This document shows positions 21-62,330 of a stretch of 64,000 nt of DNA, in pieces. The position numbers were made by a program, and so were the translations under genes. The stretch covers positions 1,178,001 to 1,242,000 of the forward strand of contig CAVNZM010000015.1 of assembly GCA_963693365.1 (NCBI GenBank). Reading direction: 5' to 3'. The notes beneath the pieces are model-generated. The model was not told the origin of the DNA, ran no database searches, and saw nothing but the letters and a program-made list of their open reading frames with translations. Source of the DNA: Amoebidium appalachense (taxonomy: Eukaryota; Protista; Ichthyosporea). Position 1 is the first letter of the stretch. Every line of letters begins with the position of its first letter.

Positions 21-1106
21 AGTTCAGGAAAATTGCTTTTGCCACCTTCATCGGGTTCTGCATCATGGGTGGCATTGGCTTCTTTGTCAAGCTCATCCAC
101 ATCCCCATCAACAACATCATTGTGTATGTTACCCCCCCCCCCCCCCCCCCCCCCTTCTCCTTCGTCCCCCGTCCCCCCCACCACACACACAAAACACACG
201 CACATACATACTAATGCACTCGCACACACATACCTACACACACACAGAAAGGGGGGGGAGGGGGAGAGACAGAGAGACCAACCGTCACAAAACATATACA
301 TACACCCATATGTTCATGCACGCACTTGCTCATGTGCACGGGTTTTTCCTACACTTGACTTAATCTATGGGCCGTCAGGGGGGATAGCATACAGATGAGT
401 GTAGGTATGCTTCTGAAGCAGCCGAGTAATGTTTCTTAGTTTCGAGCTCTTCTCTTAGCTTTTTGGGGGTGCCCTCCCTCCATATTTCCAACCCTCTCAT
501 GCATACATCCCCCCTCCCCCCCTGCACACACACACGTGCGCACCCACACACTCCACACGAAACACTTCACACACATACACACACACACACACACTCTCTC
601 TCTCTCTCCTTCTCTCTTCTTCTCTTCTCTAAGGGCATGCCTCTGTGTGTTTTGTATGCATTTCTTCCCTCCACGTGCATGTGTTGTGCACGTGTTGTAG
701 CTGAAGTGCAACTTTCTTTCAGCGCACACGCACACGGGCACACACATGCACACGGTCACACGTGAGTGCAAGTTTAAAGGCGCACACGTCTTGCAGCCTT
801 TGCACAAGGAGGGGGGGGGGGGGGGGGGGGGAGGGGAGGGGGAGGGTCTTTTCGGGGGGGATGCCTGTGCTGCATATGCACAAGATAAAAAAGTAGTGGG
901 AAAGTATTTGGTGTCGTTACTCCCCCCTCCCCCCAAAAAAAGAAACACCACCTTCACCACCACACACGCGTACGTGCACTCGCACGCTCGCTCACACTAC
1001 TCACACACACACACTCACTCTCTCCTTCACACAAACTCACCCCACTGCCACCCTAACGCTAGCATCCTCTCTTCTTTCCCCTTCATCCTTCTTCCTTTAA
1101 CCCCCT

Positions 1107-1139
<33 letters not shown>

Positions 1140-1568
1140 TTTGAGTATTGTCGATCTGTGGTCCCCTCTGTTAGGCTGGGTTCTACTGATAGTGCATGTG
1201 TGTGTGTGTGTTTAGCGACATCTGCATTTTGCTATCCGTTGTTAGGGTGTGTGATGTGCTTCGTACACTGTAATGCCGTCCATCATTCCCCTCCCCCTAT
1301 CACACATTCAAACCCTCCCCCCCCCCCCCCAAAAAAAAAAAAAAAAAAAAAAGAAGAAGAAGAAGAAAGAAAAAGGAGAAAGAAGAAAGAAAAAAATAGG
1401 TGAATTCGGGGCCTTTTTTCTTTCTTGCAAGTGAGCTACGTCATGTGTCTCCCAACCCCTCGCTTACATCCACACCCCTTTGTTTCAACTTTGCATTTTA
1501 TCATTCATACCAAACAAGGCATAATCCCCTACTGATTATGCATGTTTTTCCGCTACAGGGGCGCATAA
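21..1568 (+). CDS. SEC61G: Protein transport protein Sec61 subunit gamma, last two coding exons (21-123, 1559-1568); 5' part is upstream of the window
   Basis: After CTAACAG the exon reads (E)[33 protein letters not shown](V), the conserved Sec61gamma/Sss1 C-terminus. GTATGT donor at 124. Acceptor CTACAG at 1558 gives G GGC GCA TAA, completing VGA*. Confidence 0.95.
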
Positions 1569-2230: not shown

Positions 2231-2357
2231 GCTCGTGTAGATGACTTGTGAGCCCTGCCCTGAGGATGAGTTCTGCTCAACATGCATGCTCTTCAATGTG
2301 TCGTTTGCACTCTGCATTGTGTTGTGGATGTGTACTTCGTACTTAATGGCGCATTCT

Positions 2358-2392
<35 letters not shown>

Positions 2393-2745
2393 TCCCCCTT
2401 CCCCACATCCCACCTCCCGAGCGGATAGGGGAGCTTCCCAAAAGCCCCGATTCCTGAGTTCCTATCCATATTTTATCTTTCTTTTCTTACTGCTGCAACC
2501 TCTTGAGTCATCCTCCGGACCGGGTTCTTCGGAATCCCACTGCTCACTTGCATGTGGCGTCTCAGCTGCTTGCAAAAATATTTGTCATAAACCATGCTCG
2601 CCTTTGGTAAATCGGACGACCCACCACTGTTCATATGGAACAGTATCTGAGAAAACGTTGGGAACATGTTTGGGTTACGGTTTACACGCGCGCGTCGACA
2701 AGTGTGTTGAATGGGTCGAAACTGGGGCTCTGTGGATGACGTAAA
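2231..2745 (+). mobile_element. Divergent copy of the poly(C)-ended interspersed repeat: module A (~2236-2360), C-run, structured module C (~2428-2743)
   Basis: Shares GGGGAGCTTCC..AAGCCCC, TCCTGAGTTCCTATC, CTTACTGCTGCAAC, AACAGTATCTGAG, GGTCGAAACT, TGTGGATGACGT and CCCTGAGGATG..TGTGTACTTCGTACTT with the copy at 57356-57710 (-); the 3' blocks are also in 40168-40425. Confidence 0.75.
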
Positions 2746-3549: not shown

Positions 3550-6731
<3,182 letters not shown>

Positions 6732-7859
6732 CTAAAAACAGGATGTGTGTTTTGGGTGTGGGTAGATTTGCGGTTATGTCAGTGCGTAGTTTTTTGTGGT
6801 GGGCGAAGGAATCGAATAAACGGCAGCTATCAAGGACCGCCAGAGAGGAGATTCGGCAGAGAATTACACGGCGTGTGCGGACAAGAGGTGGTGATTCCAC
6901 GTTTGTTTATTTTCAAATCTTTCCCTCCACCGTGATAACACATGTAACATTAGGCTGCAGGTATGTATGTAACTGCTACAAGTGTACCTCGGTAGCGAGG
7001 CCAACTGTTTACCGTCGTGGTATCAAAATTTGAGGTTACCTCTGGTTGACGTGTAAGAACTAAGTTAGATGATTTTACCTTGCAGCAAACTCGCGCTGTG
7101 CACGAAGTAGTGCAACACATATCAAGAAAGTTGTGAGCATTAACACAGTGTGTTACACTATGAACGTATGTACTGCAGTGGAGCTCAACGACTTGGCAGC
7201 CAGGCTATGCAATGTATGCATGTGTATACCTGGATACGTACGTGCTTTCGTTTTATGGCAGTTCTGTGGCAAGTTCCGATTATATTCAACATTCATAGCC
7301 AGGTGTACATAGACGCGTGCAGTGCCTTTGTAGTCTAAGACACCATGAGAACGAGCCTCATCGAGGTTGGCAACGTCAAACATGATTCTCGGTGGAATTC
7401 AATGAATCCAGCGACAATCACGCGTTGTCATCAATGTTGGTTGAATACAGACTTATTATTATTATATAGTGAACCAATCGTGTGAATCATGCATGATAAA
7501 GCGTTTGTCCGTTACGCGTTCTTTCGAAAATTCCCGTGTAAGGGCGAAGCAGCAAATACACAGTGAAACATGAAATACGTACATGTCTCGTTATTGTTTG
7601 ATGTATGCGATTCTGAGCAAGCTACGACCATGCAAGATTTCGGGTTGACCGCGCCGATGTGACTGATACAACTTATGTTCCATATTATTAGCATTCCTAT
7701 TCGTACATTTTAGGAACCCAATCAAAACGTCGTATGCTAATGTCCAATAGGGAGCGGCTAGTCTACCACATGAGTGCGAGCGCACACACACAAATGACAT
7801 ATCAGTGACATGTACTGCAATACTGAATGGGCCCACTCAGTAGTGCCAGATTCTGAGCA

Positions 7860-17019: not shown

Positions 17020-19950
<2,931 letters not shown>

Positions 19951-21129: not shown

Positions 21130-27312
<6,183 letters not shown>

Positions 27313-29683: not shown

Positions 29684-30265
29684 CCCCCCCTCCCCCCCCC
29701 CCCCCCTCTCTCTCTTATTTATACACACACTCGCACATCCATCCCCCCAGCCCCCGTCCCCCCCCCTCCCCCCTCCAACACACACACACACACATTGCCC
29801 CCTGTATGGCTTGCATTCTGCATCGTGTTATCCGTTTGTTCTTGTGTACTTCGTACTTTTTGACGCATTCAAACCCCCCCCCCCCCCCCCCCATACACAC
29901 ACACAGACATCCCTCCCAGCCCCCCTCCGCCCCCCTTCTCTCCCCCCCCCCCCCCCCCCCTTTCCCCCCCTCCCCCCCCTCCCCCCTCCCCCCAGCCCCC
30001 CTCCCCCCCCCCCCCCCCCCCCCCCCCCCTTTGTTGTCTCCTCCATATTTCGAACTCTCTAACGCATACATCACCCCCCCCCCCCCCCCACACACACACA
30101 CATACACACAGGTTGCAACCCAATGCAGAGACACGCAGCAAGCAGGTGACTGCGTGGTGTCAGATGATTAAAGACTACTACCGTGCAAAGGGCCTTTATG
30201 AGCTGTCAGTGCAGCAGGCGAGAAATGAGGAACTCTTTAACAATGAGGCTATTGGACGTACGTGT

Positions 30266-30826: not shown

Positions 30827-30897
<71 letters not shown>

Positions 30898-31484
30898 GGG
30901 GGGGGGGGGGGGGGGGAGGGGAGGAATGGGACTCTTATCATGCATACTCTGTATGTGTGGTCTTCACTCTGCATTGTGTTGTTGTTATGAATGTTAACTT
31001 CATACTTTATAACATATTCTACCCCCCCCCCCCCCCCCTTCCCCCCCGTTGCTGGGGTGCCTTTTTTTTTCTCCCCCTAACGTACCGTCACAAACATACA
31101 CACAAACACAAGCAAACAAAGATTGGAGAAAGAACCACAGAAAAGAAGAAAAGGAAGCTCAGTCTATTGCATTTGCGGTCTGAAACAGAGCGAAAACGCG
31201 GTGTAAGGGGGCCTGGTTTTGGGAGGGCCGGGCAGATTTGCGTTGCCGTTGGTGTTGGTGGTGTTTTTCTCCCTTTTTCTTTTCTTTTTCTTTTTCTTTT
31301 TCTTGTTCTTTTTCTTTTTTCTTTTTCTTTTTCTTTTTTTTTTTTTTTTTTGGTGGTGGTGTGGTAGGTGGGGGGTTTTGGGGAGAGGGAGGGGGGAGGG
31401 GGGGGGGGGCTGTTTGTGTGTGCATGTGTGTACATGTGGGTGTGTGGGTGTGGTGTCGGTGGTGGTGGTGGTGGGGGGGGGGGT

Positions 31485-31943: not shown

Positions 31944-32037
<94 letters not shown>

Positions 32038-32813
32038 GAGTATGAGGTCTACACCTAATAATGCATACTGTCTGTGTGGCCTTATGTGGAAATTCTTCCT
32101 TGTGTTCTTTCGTATATGCGTGCTTCGTTCTTTAGCCTCCCTCCCCCCCCCCCCCCCCCCCCCCCCCCCGCGCGGGGACACCCACACCCACACACACACA
32201 CACACACACACACTACACACATACACACACACACCACACTACCCAAGGAGTGCTTATTTTGCATACTTTGGTTCCGGTACAAGGAAAAAATGCGCACATA
32301 AACAGTGACAGCACACACATGATAAACAACCAGCCATCCCATGCAGTGAATTTAGTGAATTTAAAAACATGAAAAAAAAGAATCAGTGAGTGGAAATTGA
32401 AATCAAAGGAAGGAAACGCTAGAACTAAGGAAACGAAGTTTCAACTCCTACTACCCCTATTGTTGTCCTTCATTTTTTGCTCGCGCTGGGTTTCCCCCTC
32501 GTTTCTCTCTTGCTCTCTTTCTCACATATCTTTCTCTGGCTGTCATTGTGTGTGTGTGTGCGTTTGTGTTGGAGCACATGTGTGTGTTGTTTCGGAACTC
32601 TCCTGTTTGTGATGTGTGTTGAACTTTGGTATGTCATATCAATTTTATAGTTTTAAAAACGTCATTATATTCGGCTAACAATTATAATCTCTTCGCCCGC
32701 AGATTGTAAAACGATCGATGACCGACCAAGTGCTAACCATCTACGAGTTGCATTCTGGAGATGAGACAGAAGGAGAGGGTGAGGACAACCCCCCCCCCCC
32801 CCCCCCCCCGGGC

Positions 32814-32875
<62 letters not shown>

Positions 32876-33204
32876 CCGCGGTGCCCACCCCGTTAATTCT
32901 TTGCTCAAAGATTCATCATGCAGTTGACTCCCAAACGCCTTTAATCTAGTGACCCCAATACGCGCACCCACACACATACATACACACGCATGGATATTGA
33001 TGTTCACAAAGCTACTCACAAACCGCTGCCATTCAATGCACCCACGCAACATCCCCCCCCCCCCCCCCCCCTGATGATGGGCTCTGTCCAAGTGTCTTGT
33101 GCCTGCACACTTAAATTGTTTGATTTTGGATTTCCCACTTTTGTGACGTTTGTTGTTGCTCTTTGTTGTCTCTTCCATATTTCCAACCCTCTGACGCATA
33201 CATC

Positions 33205-33242
<38 letters not shown>

Positions 33243-36320: not shown

Positions 36321-50999
<14,679 letters not shown>

Positions 51000-52369: not shown

Positions 52370-53741
52370 GACAGCCTGGACGAATTAGAAAAACGAAAGG
52401 AAAGTGGATTATAAGAGAAGGCCAAAAAACACACACACAAAAAAATGAATCAGCAGTTATGTATGAACACGAGGGAAGAACAAAGGTAAAGCTGGAACGA
52501 ATGCTCAAAAACAGCCTATAAATTCCACAATATCGGACACACAAAGGGAGCCCTAAAACCCTGTACATGCACATGTGCAGGCACGGAGCATTTTGAAGAG
52601 ACTTTGATGTGATACTACAATCGGTGTTTTTCACGTTTAAAAAAAGAAAAAGGAAAAGGAAAAAGAAAGAAAGAAAAAAGAAAAAGAAAAAAAAAGGGAA
52701 GGAGGAACAAGCATGTTATGTATGCTCCTTCATTCTCAAGGGGGAGGGGGGGGGGGGGGGGGGATTATGAATATATGAAAGGAACGCCTAGGGTCAATGC
52801 ACACACACCCTTGTGCCTACCACAACGTTGTGGCACACAACAGGAACATATGTATACGAGAGTCGGGGAGATGCGCGTGCATTCGTCCGTGTGTGCGGGC
52901 ATGTGTTCCAAGGGCCCCGGGGGAGGGAGGGAGGGAGGGAGGGAGGGAGGGAGGGGGGGAGGGAGGGAGGGGGGGGGGGGGGGGGGGGGGGTTTGAATGC
53001 GTCAAAAAGTACGAAGTACACAAGAACAAACGGATAACACGATGCAGAATGCAAGCCATACATAAAGAGTATGCATAATAAGCAGAGCCCATCCTCAGGG
53101 GGGGGCCACGTCATGCACAGTACCCGAGTTTGGGGGGGGGGGGGGGGGGGGGGGGACTGCCCAAAAGATTGTAAAGATTGTAACTAGTTTGTGCATGGAC
53201 ATAAACGGACCTAACATACATTCCATTCTATTGCAGTGTATGCAAATGCGAAATGCGAACGAGCCAAAGAAAATACAGCAGTACACCGCCCATCGGGATA
53301 GCTTCACGCCTACCTTATTTGGTGAAGAGACGATGGTACCGGGATAGAAACATGTAGTTTGAGGATATAATGCAAGGATATATGTGCCTGCCGGGTGGTA
53401 AAGGCTGGGGGTGTAGTCGGGTGGGGGCTCCCATAGTGGTAGCGGGATAACCGCCTTGCGTGGAAGCATGTAGTGCCTGGATATACCATATGTGAGATAT
53501 ACATACCGAAGTGGGTTAAGTTGGGATGGTGACAATAAATATATATAATGGATATGCGGATTGTGTACAATGAGACCGTGAGGAGGAGGAGGAGGAGGGG
53601 GGGGGGGGGGGGGGGGGGGGAGGGGGGGACGGGAGCATAACAGAACACACCAAAGACGACAAATGCAGAAAACAAAACCTAAAAAGGTGGTGGTGGTAGT
53701 GGTGTGTGTGAGTGTGTGAGTGAGTGAGTGAGTGTGTGTGT

Positions 53742-53772
<31 letters not shown>

Positions 53773-53880
53773 GGGGGGGGGGTATGCATCAGAGGGCTAC
53801 AATTATGGAAATGGGGACATCTTAAGAAAAACCACACGTCTCAAAAACCCCAAAACCGGACACAGACGAGAAGAAAAAAA

Positions 53881-56565: not shown

Positions 56566-57068
56566 TAGGGAGGTCCTCCCCCTGAGTGAGGGGGACTGGG
56601 GGGGGGGGGGGGGAGGGGGGGGGGGCTTTGGGGGGATGGGGGGGGGGGGGGGGGGGAGGGGGGGGGGGGGAGGATGGGAAGGGGGGTATGTGGGAAAGAT
56701 GTCGAGATATGTGGGGTGTGGAAACACACTAACATAAAATTGCGGGGGAGGAGGGGAGAGGGGGAGGGAGAGGGGAGAGGGGAGAGGGGGGGGGGGAGAG
56801 GGGGGGGGAAGGGGGGGGGGGGGGGGGGGGGGAGGGAGGGGGGAAGCGAGAGAGAGAGAGGGAGAGAGTATCTAGATACCAACCGACCGGCAGGCCAAAG
56901 GGGGGGGGGCGGGGAGGGGGGAAGGGGGGGGGGGGGAGGGGGGAAGGGGGGAGGGGGGGGGGGGGATTAGAAAGTGTTGCATGGTACGAAGTGGACATTC
57001 ACAACGGGCAACACAAATGCAGAGTGCAAACTACAAACAAGAGTATGCACATTAAGCAGAACCCATTC

Positions 57069-57105
<37 letters not shown>

Positions 57106-57167
57106 ATGTCATCCACAGGGGAGGGAGGGGCGCGCGGAGGAAGGGGGGAGGGGGGGGGGGGGGGGGG

Positions 57168-57710
57168 ATGGATGTATGCATTGAAGGGTTGGAGATATAG
57201 AGGAGAGGCCAAAGGACAAAAATACAAAACGGCACAAAAATAAAAAACACGAAATCAAACCATATATAATGGAACAACAAAAATATAAACGTGCAGGCAG
57301 ATAACACTCAAACAGAGCCCACCAGCAAGGGGGGGGGGGGGGGGGGGGAGGGGGTTTTGAATGCGTCAAAAAGTACGAAGTACACAAGAACAAACGGATA
57401 ACACGATGCAGAATGCAAGCCATGCATAAAGAGTATGCATAATAAGCAGAGCCCATCCTCAGGGGGGGCCCACGTCATCCACAGTACCCGAGTTTCGACC
57501 TATTCCCCTCGTTAACGAAACCCAACTCAGATACTGTTTCACTTGAACATGAGTAGGTCACCCGTCTTGATCAGAGACGAGCAGGGTTGCTTATGCAGGC
57601 AAGGGCAGTGGGAAAGGCCGGGGGTTAAAGTTGCAGCAGTAAGCAGAAGCAAGAAAAATATAGATAGGAACTCAGGAGACGGGGCTTCTAGGAAGCTCCC
57701 CCGTCGATAC
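57168..57710 (-). mobile_element. Longest copy of the repeat family: module C, module A, C-run, module B, C-run; may extend 5' to ~58060
   Basis: Contains in order all blocks seen separately at 2428-2743, 40168-40425 and 33070-33210. No convincing ORF. Confidence 0.85.
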
Positions 57711-58180
57711 CTAAGTCGATACTTCCCTTGCTAACATACTACACCAGCTGAAAAGAACTAAGTCCCGAAGGCCGCAGAATTCGTAATCAGAGGGGAAAAT
57801 ATGAGATTTGACCCACGCCGCAGGGTAGTAACACGCTTACTAGGGCGGAACTTTATCGTCTTCGAACGGAAAGCTATGCCCCCGGATGTCAGCCGGAAAT
57901 ATGGTATCACCCATTGCTTTGGGCTTGAAAAAAGCCAAACCGATAGTCCGAGTTATGTTACGCCGGCGGGTAACATGCCGCATGGGTTCCAAGGGAGCTG
58001 TCGCCAACAGAGCGGTGTGTGCATGCGTGCGCGTAACGCAATGTGTGAAGTGGGGGGAGGGGGGGGGGATCGTCTACCTCCGGCCCTATTTTCCTCCTGT
58101 ATTCGTGCGTGTAGTGCCGATATGCTCACCAGCACACTGCCCGTCTCTTTGCTCAGTCGGTCTACTTGTTGCAGCCCAGA

Positions 58181-58372
58181 GTGCACCTCCCCATATAGCT
58201 CACGCTCCATTTCTGATGTGTAACAGTCAGTTGAAGGGGGTTTTCTTATATCTAGTTTGTATTCTTTTTTACGCAGCATTGATGTATTCATATATCTCCC
58301 TCTTGTGCACCTCCTCATATAGTTCACACTCCACTTCTGATGTAGAACAGTCAGTATAAAGTTCTTATCTTA
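58181..58372. repeat. ~125-bp-period diverged direct duplication
   Basis: GTGCACCTCC.CATATAG.TCAC.CTCCA.TTCTGATGT..AACAGTCAGT at 58181 and ~58305. Confidence 0.8.
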
Positions 58373-58748
58373 TTCAAGATTATATCTTAATTGCTTTCTA
58401 GTGTTTATGTGTCTCTCTCTTTCTGTCCTTCCCCTTTCTCAAAGGGTATCGACCCCTCTTCTTTTCGTTTCTACAGGGTTGAATATTCTCGAGTTCGGGG
58501 CAAGCTCTCCCTGTACGTGATACATTTAAATATCAGACGACTTCAGGTTAGATAATAAAAAGGTAAAACACTGCCACTTACAGCTATGGTGTATTTTTCG
58601 TGAGTCGATTTACACCCTTTTATTCCAACCGCACATGACAAACAGAAGGAAAGAGAGAATAGATAAATGCACGGGAGATCCGAGACAAAGGAAAAAAAGA
58701 GAGAAAAGTCACTGGTGTCTGTACGTATTGCACATGTGTGTCTCTCTC

Positions 58749-61167: not shown

Positions 61168-62330
61168 ATACCTCTCTTCCGCCTTTTTCCCCTTCCTCGC
61201 TCCAAGGGCTCCCACCTTGTTTTAGCCCCTCCCCCCCCCTCCCCCCCCCCCCCCCCCCCCCCCCGCCCCCGGCCCCTCTCCCCCTCCCCCCCCAACCCCC
61301 CCCCCCACACACACACCATATCAGGTGTACGATAAAGTGAAAGTTAACACAGAGGAGGAGGCCCAGAAACAAAAATCATTACTCAGGTAAGCTCGATTGG
61401 ATTCCTCCCCTCCTCCCCCCTTCCCCCCTCTCCCGCGTGACTGCCCCCCCCTCCCCCCCCCCCCCCCCCCCCCCCCCGAGGTTGGGCTCTGCTTATGATG
61501 CATACTCTCTGTGTGTGCTCTGCAACACGTGTCTATATTGTTTTGTCTTTCGTAAGTGTGTTCATCGCATCCTGTAACCCATCTCTACCCCCCCCCCCCC
61601 CCCCCAAAAAAAAAAAAAAAAAGAAAAAAAAAGAAAGAAAGAAAGAAAGAAAGGCAAGAAATGAAAAAGAAAAACCCTTTTCCCTCTTGTGCAGGGCTGT
61701 CGGTTTTGGCTCAAGAATGCGTTGTGCATTGGTTTTTAGATTTGTCCTGTTTTATTATTGGTAATTTTTTTTTTTTACGATCGTTCTTTGTTTTTTTGTC
61801 TCACTTTGTTTCTTTTCTTTTGTGCATTTTATCCCCCCCCCCCTCTCTAACCCCTAACCCCCATCCCCTTCCCCCTTATTCTGGGTAAATGTTTTATCTG
61901 AAGAACCGGGTATTCAAAAGGTTGGAAGGCAATGGTGAAGCTGCGGGGGGAGGGAGGGGGGGCGGAGGTAGGTCTATACGAGGGAAGCCCTAGGTATAGG
62001 GAGATCGGATGATAACCGGCTAAAAAAATCCAATAATTGATAATAATTTACAAAAATAAAAAACATAAACCCAATAACCATAACCCTATGTGTGTCTGGG
62101 CCCTAAATGGGGGGGCTGCCGCCCCCCCAACCCCCCGCTAAGGGGCCTGACGGCCCCTTTATGTCGCTTGGGGATCGAATCGTTCTCCCCTGATTTTACG
62201 TCATCGGATCGTGTTTTGTCCAATCAGGTGCGCGGGGACTTCCGGCGTATGGACTTAGGTGGGGGGGGGGCGGAAGGAGGTCAACAGAGGATTGTGGGAG
62301 AGAACGCTAGAGGAGGGGAGGGTGTGTGTT

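Follow-up and report, generated by a model that had tools for sequence, protein, structure and literature searches.

The window, by which we mean the whole 64-kb stretch of Amoebidium DNA that was analysed, is gene-rich, and all the copy counts given here refer to this single window and not to the genome. SGF29, VPS25 (ESCRT-II), an RGS gene and a hydrolase were confirmed by Pfam. Over an intronless part of the hydrolase gene (17851-18219), the translation shares 98% identity with a protein attributed by its source to Amoebidium parasiticum, the next relatives being at about 50%, which places the window in Amoebidium; word-index protein searches with a hydrolase exon and an RGS exon gave no match. 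The names SEC61G, MPPE1, FBXL and SZRD1 are those of a preliminary description and were tentatively matched to the translations; only the strand of these genes matters in what follows. The exon translations and GT donors served to delimit the gene spans manually. Intron 1 of SGF29 contains the longest copy of the young subfamily of the repeats that interest us (57355..58052, minus strand), which is 698 bp long, has no ORF, is truncated at its 5' end and lies between C-runs. The host is an ichthyosporean kept in culture, with a chromosome-scale genome of 202 Mb, about half of which corresponds to transposons (PMC11244446).

Profile searches retrieved 13 A-type and 7 B-type copies from the window and none from the reversed window or the reversed and complemented windows used as controls. 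Together with a single C-type copy, which is a weak profile match (E = 0.059), they make up 21 related copies with a median length of 124 bp, in agreement with the roughly 20 occurrences that had been described. When each copy was left out of its own profile, 18 of the 20 were still recovered with E <= 2e-4, the weak ones being those at about 41658-41808 (E = 0.0064) and 53781-53860 (E = 0.011). The motif TGA(G/T)GATGGGCTCTG occurs 9 times in the window versus 0.24 expected; motif scans of metagenome contigs and viral contigs gave no matches. The three kinds of module share this start motif and have similar ends, and they align to the young A module at 56-73%.

The copies are distributed over the introns of six genes. 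SEC61G carries an older B fragment (420..509) and an older A copy (1153..1276), both on the plus strand, and MPPE1 two older A copies on the minus strand (22838..22951 and 23990..24086). The VPS25 introns contain, all on the plus strand, a young 5'-truncated copy of 71 bp (29803..29873), a short B 3' fragment between C-runs (30030..30073), older A copies at 30923..31022 and 32034..32134 and a B copy between C-runs (33072..33205). In FBXL, also on the plus strand, a young 5'-truncated copy of 263 bp between C-runs (40160..40422) is accompanied by the weak B copy (41660..41808), an older A copy absent from the preliminary description (44275..44366) and a B copy that extends into the upstream core (45965..46121). 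The SGF29 introns carry, on the minus strand and besides the long copy, a young 5'-truncated copy of 140 bp flanked by C24 and C23 (52992..53131), the weak B fragment (53781..53860), an older A copy (56966..57120) and a B module (57168..57328) that follows the long copy head-to-tail, with a C-run in between. SZRD1 has an older A copy between C-runs (61478..61587, plus strand). The host gene could not be assigned for an older A copy at 2233..2358 (plus strand), behind which a diverged core, X2, lies head-to-tail (2418..2745, plus strand), nor for the C module, again between C-runs, at 5570..5698 (minus strand).

The four young copies (698, 263, 140 and 71 bp) are 97-100% alike, with 258/262, 137/140, 136/140, 70/71, 70/71 and 71/71 identical positions in the pairwise comparisons. 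They share a single 3' end and differ in their 5' ends. The near-identical foursome is thus confirmed, and the recent activity that had been proposed for it is supported: the family is retroposon-like, 5'-truncated and recently multiplied. The long copy can be divided, on the minus strand, into a 3' module A (57355-57461), a core X (57462-57712) and an upstream part Y (57713-58052). No long ORF and no Pfam match were detected in its 698 bp. Likewise, the window has no Rfam match at the gathering score, the element itself yields one match at chance level (E = 1.3), and no tRNA was found in the element. The element contains short hairpins in its core, and its folding is no better than that of shuffled sequences (z = -0.24; z = -2.2 to 1.2 in 100-nt windows). 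The core X2 is an exception to the fixed 3' end, as it stops without a 3' module and without a C-run behind it.

Contigs from several sequencing runs were compared with these copies. They include two DNA runs from two studies, one of which is possibly the source of the window itself, and a run guessed to be RNA, whose contigs cover the element and show neither strand, ends nor level. A 956-bp stretch containing the long copy was matched by 3,365 and 9,364 contigs in the two DNA runs, in each of which the listed exon flank corresponds to a single piece. The summed contig depth on the element is far above that on the exon, although such depth is no copy number. In three runs (X14, X16 and X9) the unique flank was without contig cover. 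The high cover ends at 58052 in the two DNA runs, and loose ends in all four runs show that the element extends further upstream, by 111-132 nt in two contigs. This continuation has no match within the window. Inspected by eye, it ends like a B or C module followed by a run of five C and then joins part Y, an arrangement that hints at composite or circularly permuted units. The modules are the 3' ends of a longer ORF-less element, whose longest copy in the window is itself cut at the 5' end. Modules A and B had been described as related and recurring, which they are; they correspond to the variable 3' ends of this element.

The contigs also revealed a sister subfamily that keeps the blocks corresponding to 40174-40218 and 40299-40346 but has another spacer and a C-type 3' module. 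Since the blocks are shared and the ends differ, these sequences make up a family whose subfamilies have a core in common but diverge in the last 110-160 nt. In contigs from two runs, G-rich spacers link the 3' end of one copy to the truncated start of another. Head-to-tail neighbours are found in the window as well (56966-58052 and 2233-2745), always across a C-run, so that repeated insertion into the C-run of a previous copy explains them too. True pseudo-LTRs, in which a truncated copy precedes a full one, were not seen, nor was any tail extension of 30-40 bp among the four young copies, which are few. Self-comparison of the window detected no repeat joining both ends of the 698-bp copy, the true 5' end of the element lying outside the window. 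Some contigs of 0.5-2.8 kb (records 24, 28 and 29 of run X9, 26, 28 and 30 of run X8 and 13 of run X16) combine a piece of the family with hundreds to thousands of letters of unlike sequence; they are candidates for longer subfamilies or for an autonomous partner.

A C-run of at least 5 nt is present within 25 nt downstream of all 21 copies (background 10.6%), and 15 of the 21 also have one upstream. Since C-runs precede copies that start at arbitrary points of the element, insertion into a C-tract is what would be expected, and not the addition of a C-tail. The C-runs on both flanks support the targeting of C-tracts by the element. The preliminary description had left the choice between a C-tailed element and one aimed at C-tracts: the second possibility is supported, and a C-tailed RNA was rejected as the sole explanation on account of the C-runs that also lie 5' of the copies.

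The 5' ends are not scattered evenly. In run X7, whose joints were read outside the repeat at 40419-40510, 15 joints were inspected, 54 others being outside the listing; in 14 of these 15 the upstream C-run, or the bases that immediately follow it, is connected to a start at 40299-40323. A poly-C loose end precedes 40310 in 60 contigs. Further starts lie at 40227, 40240, 40245, 40337 and 40367, and a 5' junction identical to that of the window is also present; no empty site was seen among the contigs read. Most of these joints have nothing but the C-run on their short side, so they report other loci of the family. The matching positions of the long copy contain an internal C7 tract that immediately precedes module A (57461..57468, minus strand), as is apparent from the sequence itself and from the joints and the poly-C loose end at the matching 40310-40323. 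The shared start of the modules is a hot spot of 5' truncation behind this tract. The motif TGA(G/T)GATGGGCTCTG, which had been taken for the start of the element, thus occupies an internal position, as the element reaches 58052 in this copy and goes further elsewhere.

Several steps may account for this structure. The endonuclease of an unseen partner would nick the G strand of a C/G tract, and the RNA would then be copied from a fixed site by target-primed reverse transcription. In the simplest reading, synthesis would often end with the cDNA copy of this internal C7 tract paired to the target tract, and the outcome of such a stop would be a module of 110-160 nt left between two C-runs. A Penelope-like reverse transcriptase can start at a fixed internal site of the RNA without homology to the target, according to the text of PMC11167929; no tail is thus needed to obtain a fixed 3' end. 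It seems rather probable that the repeats are 5'-truncated copies of a multi-copy element without ORF, inserted in C-runs likely by target priming and most likely with the help of an unseen Penelope-like partner of the Chlamys type.

The Chlamys elements are the closest known system in behaviour. They are described as Penelope-like elements (PLEs) that target (CA)n and (C)n and are frequently 5'-truncated, that include non-autonomous head-to-tail families and that mostly lack a canonical hammerhead (PMC8557442). A preference for (C)n is reported for 13 of the 49 listed Chlamys families, all from Chlamydomonas or Edaphochlamys (PMC8557442). Thus, poly(C) ends in place of poly(A) are not new, since (C)n targeting was already described for Chlamys of Chlamydomonas. 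In mutation-accumulation lines, insertions of Chlamys-9 and of the non-autonomous Chlamys-N4 had a median length of 128 bp and were all intronic, a share above that predicted from the (C)n targets (10.1101/2022.05.23.493040). The family resembles the non-autonomous Chlamys elements of Chlamydomonas (Chlamys-N4_cRei with Chlamys-9_cRei; MRC1) in its (C)n target, its intronic position, the lack of an ORF and its very short 5'-truncated copies (median 128 bp there versus 124 bp here), and also in its head-to-tail copies and the lack of a canonical hammerhead. It differs from them in its ichthyosporean host and in that no sequence likeness was seen; the internal C7 truncation hot spot and the AG-poor 3' modules have no counterpart in the Chlamys descriptions. 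Six core motifs compared with the published Chlamys and Naiad consensus files gave four single scattered matches, none of them telling, and the 3' ends showed no likeness to these consensi by eye. Among 146 frames of the window, Pfam recognized neither a reverse transcriptase nor a GIY-YIG protein. A likeness of one frame in part Y to a motif of the Penelope thumb region was dropped, as the frame had no protein match at E = 10. The element works like a non-autonomous Chlamys, and its putative link to Penelope-like elements is by behaviour only.

Some further likenesses concern ribozymes. Strict and relaxed scans of both strands revealed no canonical hammerhead, in keeping with Rfam, but the long copy contains GAAA and, 34 nt on, CTGANGA (57456..57496, minus strand), which correspond to both halves of a hammerhead core but do not form its fold. 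CTGANGA lies 108 nt from the 3' end and this 7-mer is expected 0.02 times per 110 nt. It is exact in only 5 of the 14 copies that cover the place, which makes the half-core likeness weak. Hammerhead half cores with a spacing of 35-50 nt are reported in some Naiads (PMC8557442), which likewise have CUGANGA near the 3' end and GAAA tens of nucleotides away without a hammerhead fold; the spacing here, 34 nt from start to start, is just under theirs. Unlike this family, Naiads are autonomous, metazoan and prefer (TA)n. The animal non-LTR retrozymes, described as non-autonomous Penelope-like derivatives that are short, non-coding and prone to tandem arrangement, are comparable in being short and non-coding. 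Nevertheless, they have a working hammerhead and are excluded from introns, whereas here no hammerhead folds and the copies are intronic. Given that neither the scans nor Rfam detected a self-cleaving hammerhead, the family was not assigned to the retrozymes.

No work on Penelope-like elements in Amoebidium was found by title among the matches listed in the literature search, and PMC13159263, which concerns Coprina elements, adds nothing here. In the Amoebidium genome paper, the main text holds no word starting with "PLE" and the supplement text no "Penelope", the repeat figure and library being outside these texts. The family may already be present, as unclassified, in the Amoebidium repeat library, Repbase or Dfam. 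The literature found mentions neither this host lineage nor the truncation hot spot nor the strict sense orientation with AG-poor modules.

The orientation of the copies is uniform. All 19 that lie inside the hand-set gene spans are sense to their host gene, which extends the 17 of the preliminary description; 2233-2358 and 5570-5698 were left out of this count for want of an assignable host gene. Sense C-runs outnumber sense G-runs (122:46, and 97:45, about 2:1, away from the copies), so the null expectation is not 50:50. With gene-specific C:G ratios, the probability that all copies are sense is 0.0003 for the 19 copies and 0.001 for the 15 hand-counted introns, but six out of six genes corresponds to p = 0.06, which is not significant. 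Thus, once the frequency of C-runs and G-runs in the window is controlled for, the proposed bias still exceeds the background per intron, and a sense bias beyond the target skew is likely real in this one window.

The modules are poor in AG. Over the 21 copies there are 38 AG on the sense strand and 201 on the antisense strand, and the 18 non-redundant modules hold 31, versus 68 in shuffled sequences, none of 2000 shuffles being as low. The ratio of observed to expected AG is 0.46 in the modules, as compared with 0.85 for the introns that host them and 0.8-1.0 for the parts of the element that lie upstream. The deficit is found in the old A copies (p < 0.0005), in B (p = 0.011) and in C (p = 0.039) and is borderline in the single young A (p = 0.06); X2, the diverged core, shows it too (p = 0.011). 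These values overstate the significance, as the copies are related and not independent. The long sense copy has 26 AG in its upstream part, yet it persists. About two thirds of the targets would already be in the sense orientation. Since a module inserted in sense brings in almost no AG acceptor, and one inserted in antisense about five times as much AG, selection through splicing is the preferred cause, and the rest of the bias likely derives from it. Alternatively, it could arise if the template G strand became accessible during transcription. The Chlamys texts available from PMC8557442 and 10.1101/2022.05.23.493040 do not say on which strand of the host genes the copies lie; in mammals, literature abstracts describe an antisense lean of intronic transposons.

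Other origins can be envisaged for the element. Under the same target-primed mechanism, the mobiliser could be a sequence-specific non-LTR retrotransposon of the LINE type (RLE or APE), the repeat being a SINE-like passenger or a truncated 3' UTR. LINEs that target microsatellites exist, and these LINEs and the SINEs of this kind also combine a fixed 3' end and 5' truncation with a simple repeat on both flanks, so that the structure of the copies fits LINEs equally well. LINE passengers usually keep the recognised tail, whereas the subfamilies described here differ most in their last 110-160 nt. No tRNA head and no Rfam head were detected; more precisely, the 698 bp contain no polymerase III head (tRNA, 7SL or 5S), the element extending at least 111-132 nt upstream and its true 5' end lying outside the window. 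A host genome of which some 50% is transposons (PMC11244446) could offer such a mobiliser, but the literature search for poly(C)-targeting retrotransposons listed no paper, whereas (C)n targeting is documented for Chlamys. A LINE-type mobiliser is thus unlikely, if worth keeping in mind. A rolling-circle HUH element of the Helitron or Replitron type, which would have one fixed and one variable end and enter a C/G tract in a set orientation, seems very improbable. HUH transposons do insert at their targets in a specific orientation (PMC10288648) and the core has short hairpins, but the C-runs are at both ends, neither a terminal direct repeat nor a conserved terminal hairpin is present (folding z = -0.24, -2.2 to 1.2 in 100-nt windows) and Replitron insertions in Chlamydomonas avoid introns (10.1101/2022.05.23.493040). 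The least probable reading, which can almost be set aside, is that the modules are snoRNA-like host intronic RNAs or their retrocopies, sense because they are processed from introns. The strict sense orientation would suit them and the B copy at 33072-33205 starts with TGATGA and carries CTGA close to its other end, but only one of the 7 B copies (one of 9 copies examined) has both boxes, Rfam gives no match, the copies are cut at many 5' positions and the element measures at least 700 bp. The modules were accordingly not classified as box C/D snoRNAs.

The orientation might also be questioned while the element is accepted, if the all-sense pattern had arisen locally by accident, through target skew and re-insertion in clusters. 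The 97:45 lead of sense C-runs, the adjacency of several copies and their restriction to six genes (p = 0.06) speak for such an accident. Yet sense G-runs and C-runs stand at 12:7 in MPPE1 and 8:10 in VPS25, all 7 copies in these two genes are sense, and the probability per intron is 0.001. We thus regard a local accident as fairly improbable and retain as likely a sense bias that goes beyond the targets.

The preferred Chlamys-like reading can be carried further, although what follows is put forward tentatively and is more doubtful than the mechanism itself. The element could be an intron specialist that aims at intronic poly(C), breaks at its own C7 tract and leaves an AG-free, U-rich module invisible to the spliceosome in one direction, so that copies persist almost exclusively in sense; it would then be the first poly(C)-targeting holozoan PLE, possibly with tens of thousands of copies, each duplicating a C-run. 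If a Chlamys-type partner is found, (C)n-targeting PLEs would be distributed from green algae to the unicellular lineages nearest to animals. A near-total sense bias, if true, would be the reverse of the mammalian antisense lean. Extrapolated from the density in this one gene-rich window to 202 Mb, the family would amount to some 66,000 fragments, and the young copies to 12,600; thousands of copies of differing ages would allow insertion preference to be separated from splicing selection.

The contribution of the family to the poly(C) landscape of the introns is limited. Only 25 of the 122 sense C-runs touch a detected copy; the other 97 are more than 30 nt away from any, and the RGS gene, where no copy was detected, still has 14 sense C-runs. 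The family is consequently unlikely to have seeded most of the intronic poly(C), unless very old copies have decayed. The family would nevertheless add to the C-runs through target duplication and through growth of the internal tract, which reaches 34 C in the older A copy of SGF29 (57071-57104). In many introns a C-run lies no more than about 20 nt from the GT donor, which suggests a host role for sense C-runs or a mutational source independent of the element. In a VPS25 intron, 68 C abut 21 G directly ahead of an old A copy (30828-30916).

Some other features of the window can be mentioned. The minus strand of 4340-6732 may hold a small gene, with a frame of 80 codons (6492-6731), a donor-like site behind it and C-rich, intron-like sequence; if this gene is real, the C module at 5570-5698 is sense as well. 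Three local tandem arrays lie at 49354-50157, 46908-47222 and 43634-44062, with units of about 52, 32 and 26-27 bp respectively, judging from self-match offsets. In SGF29, the start of exon 1 is duplicated just upstream (58181-58262 and 58305-58385, 79% identity), and several degenerate repeats of a piece of the Tudor exon precede the real exon on the minus strand (53313-53530), the frame at 53173-53562 matching the Tudor profile with E = 5e-13.
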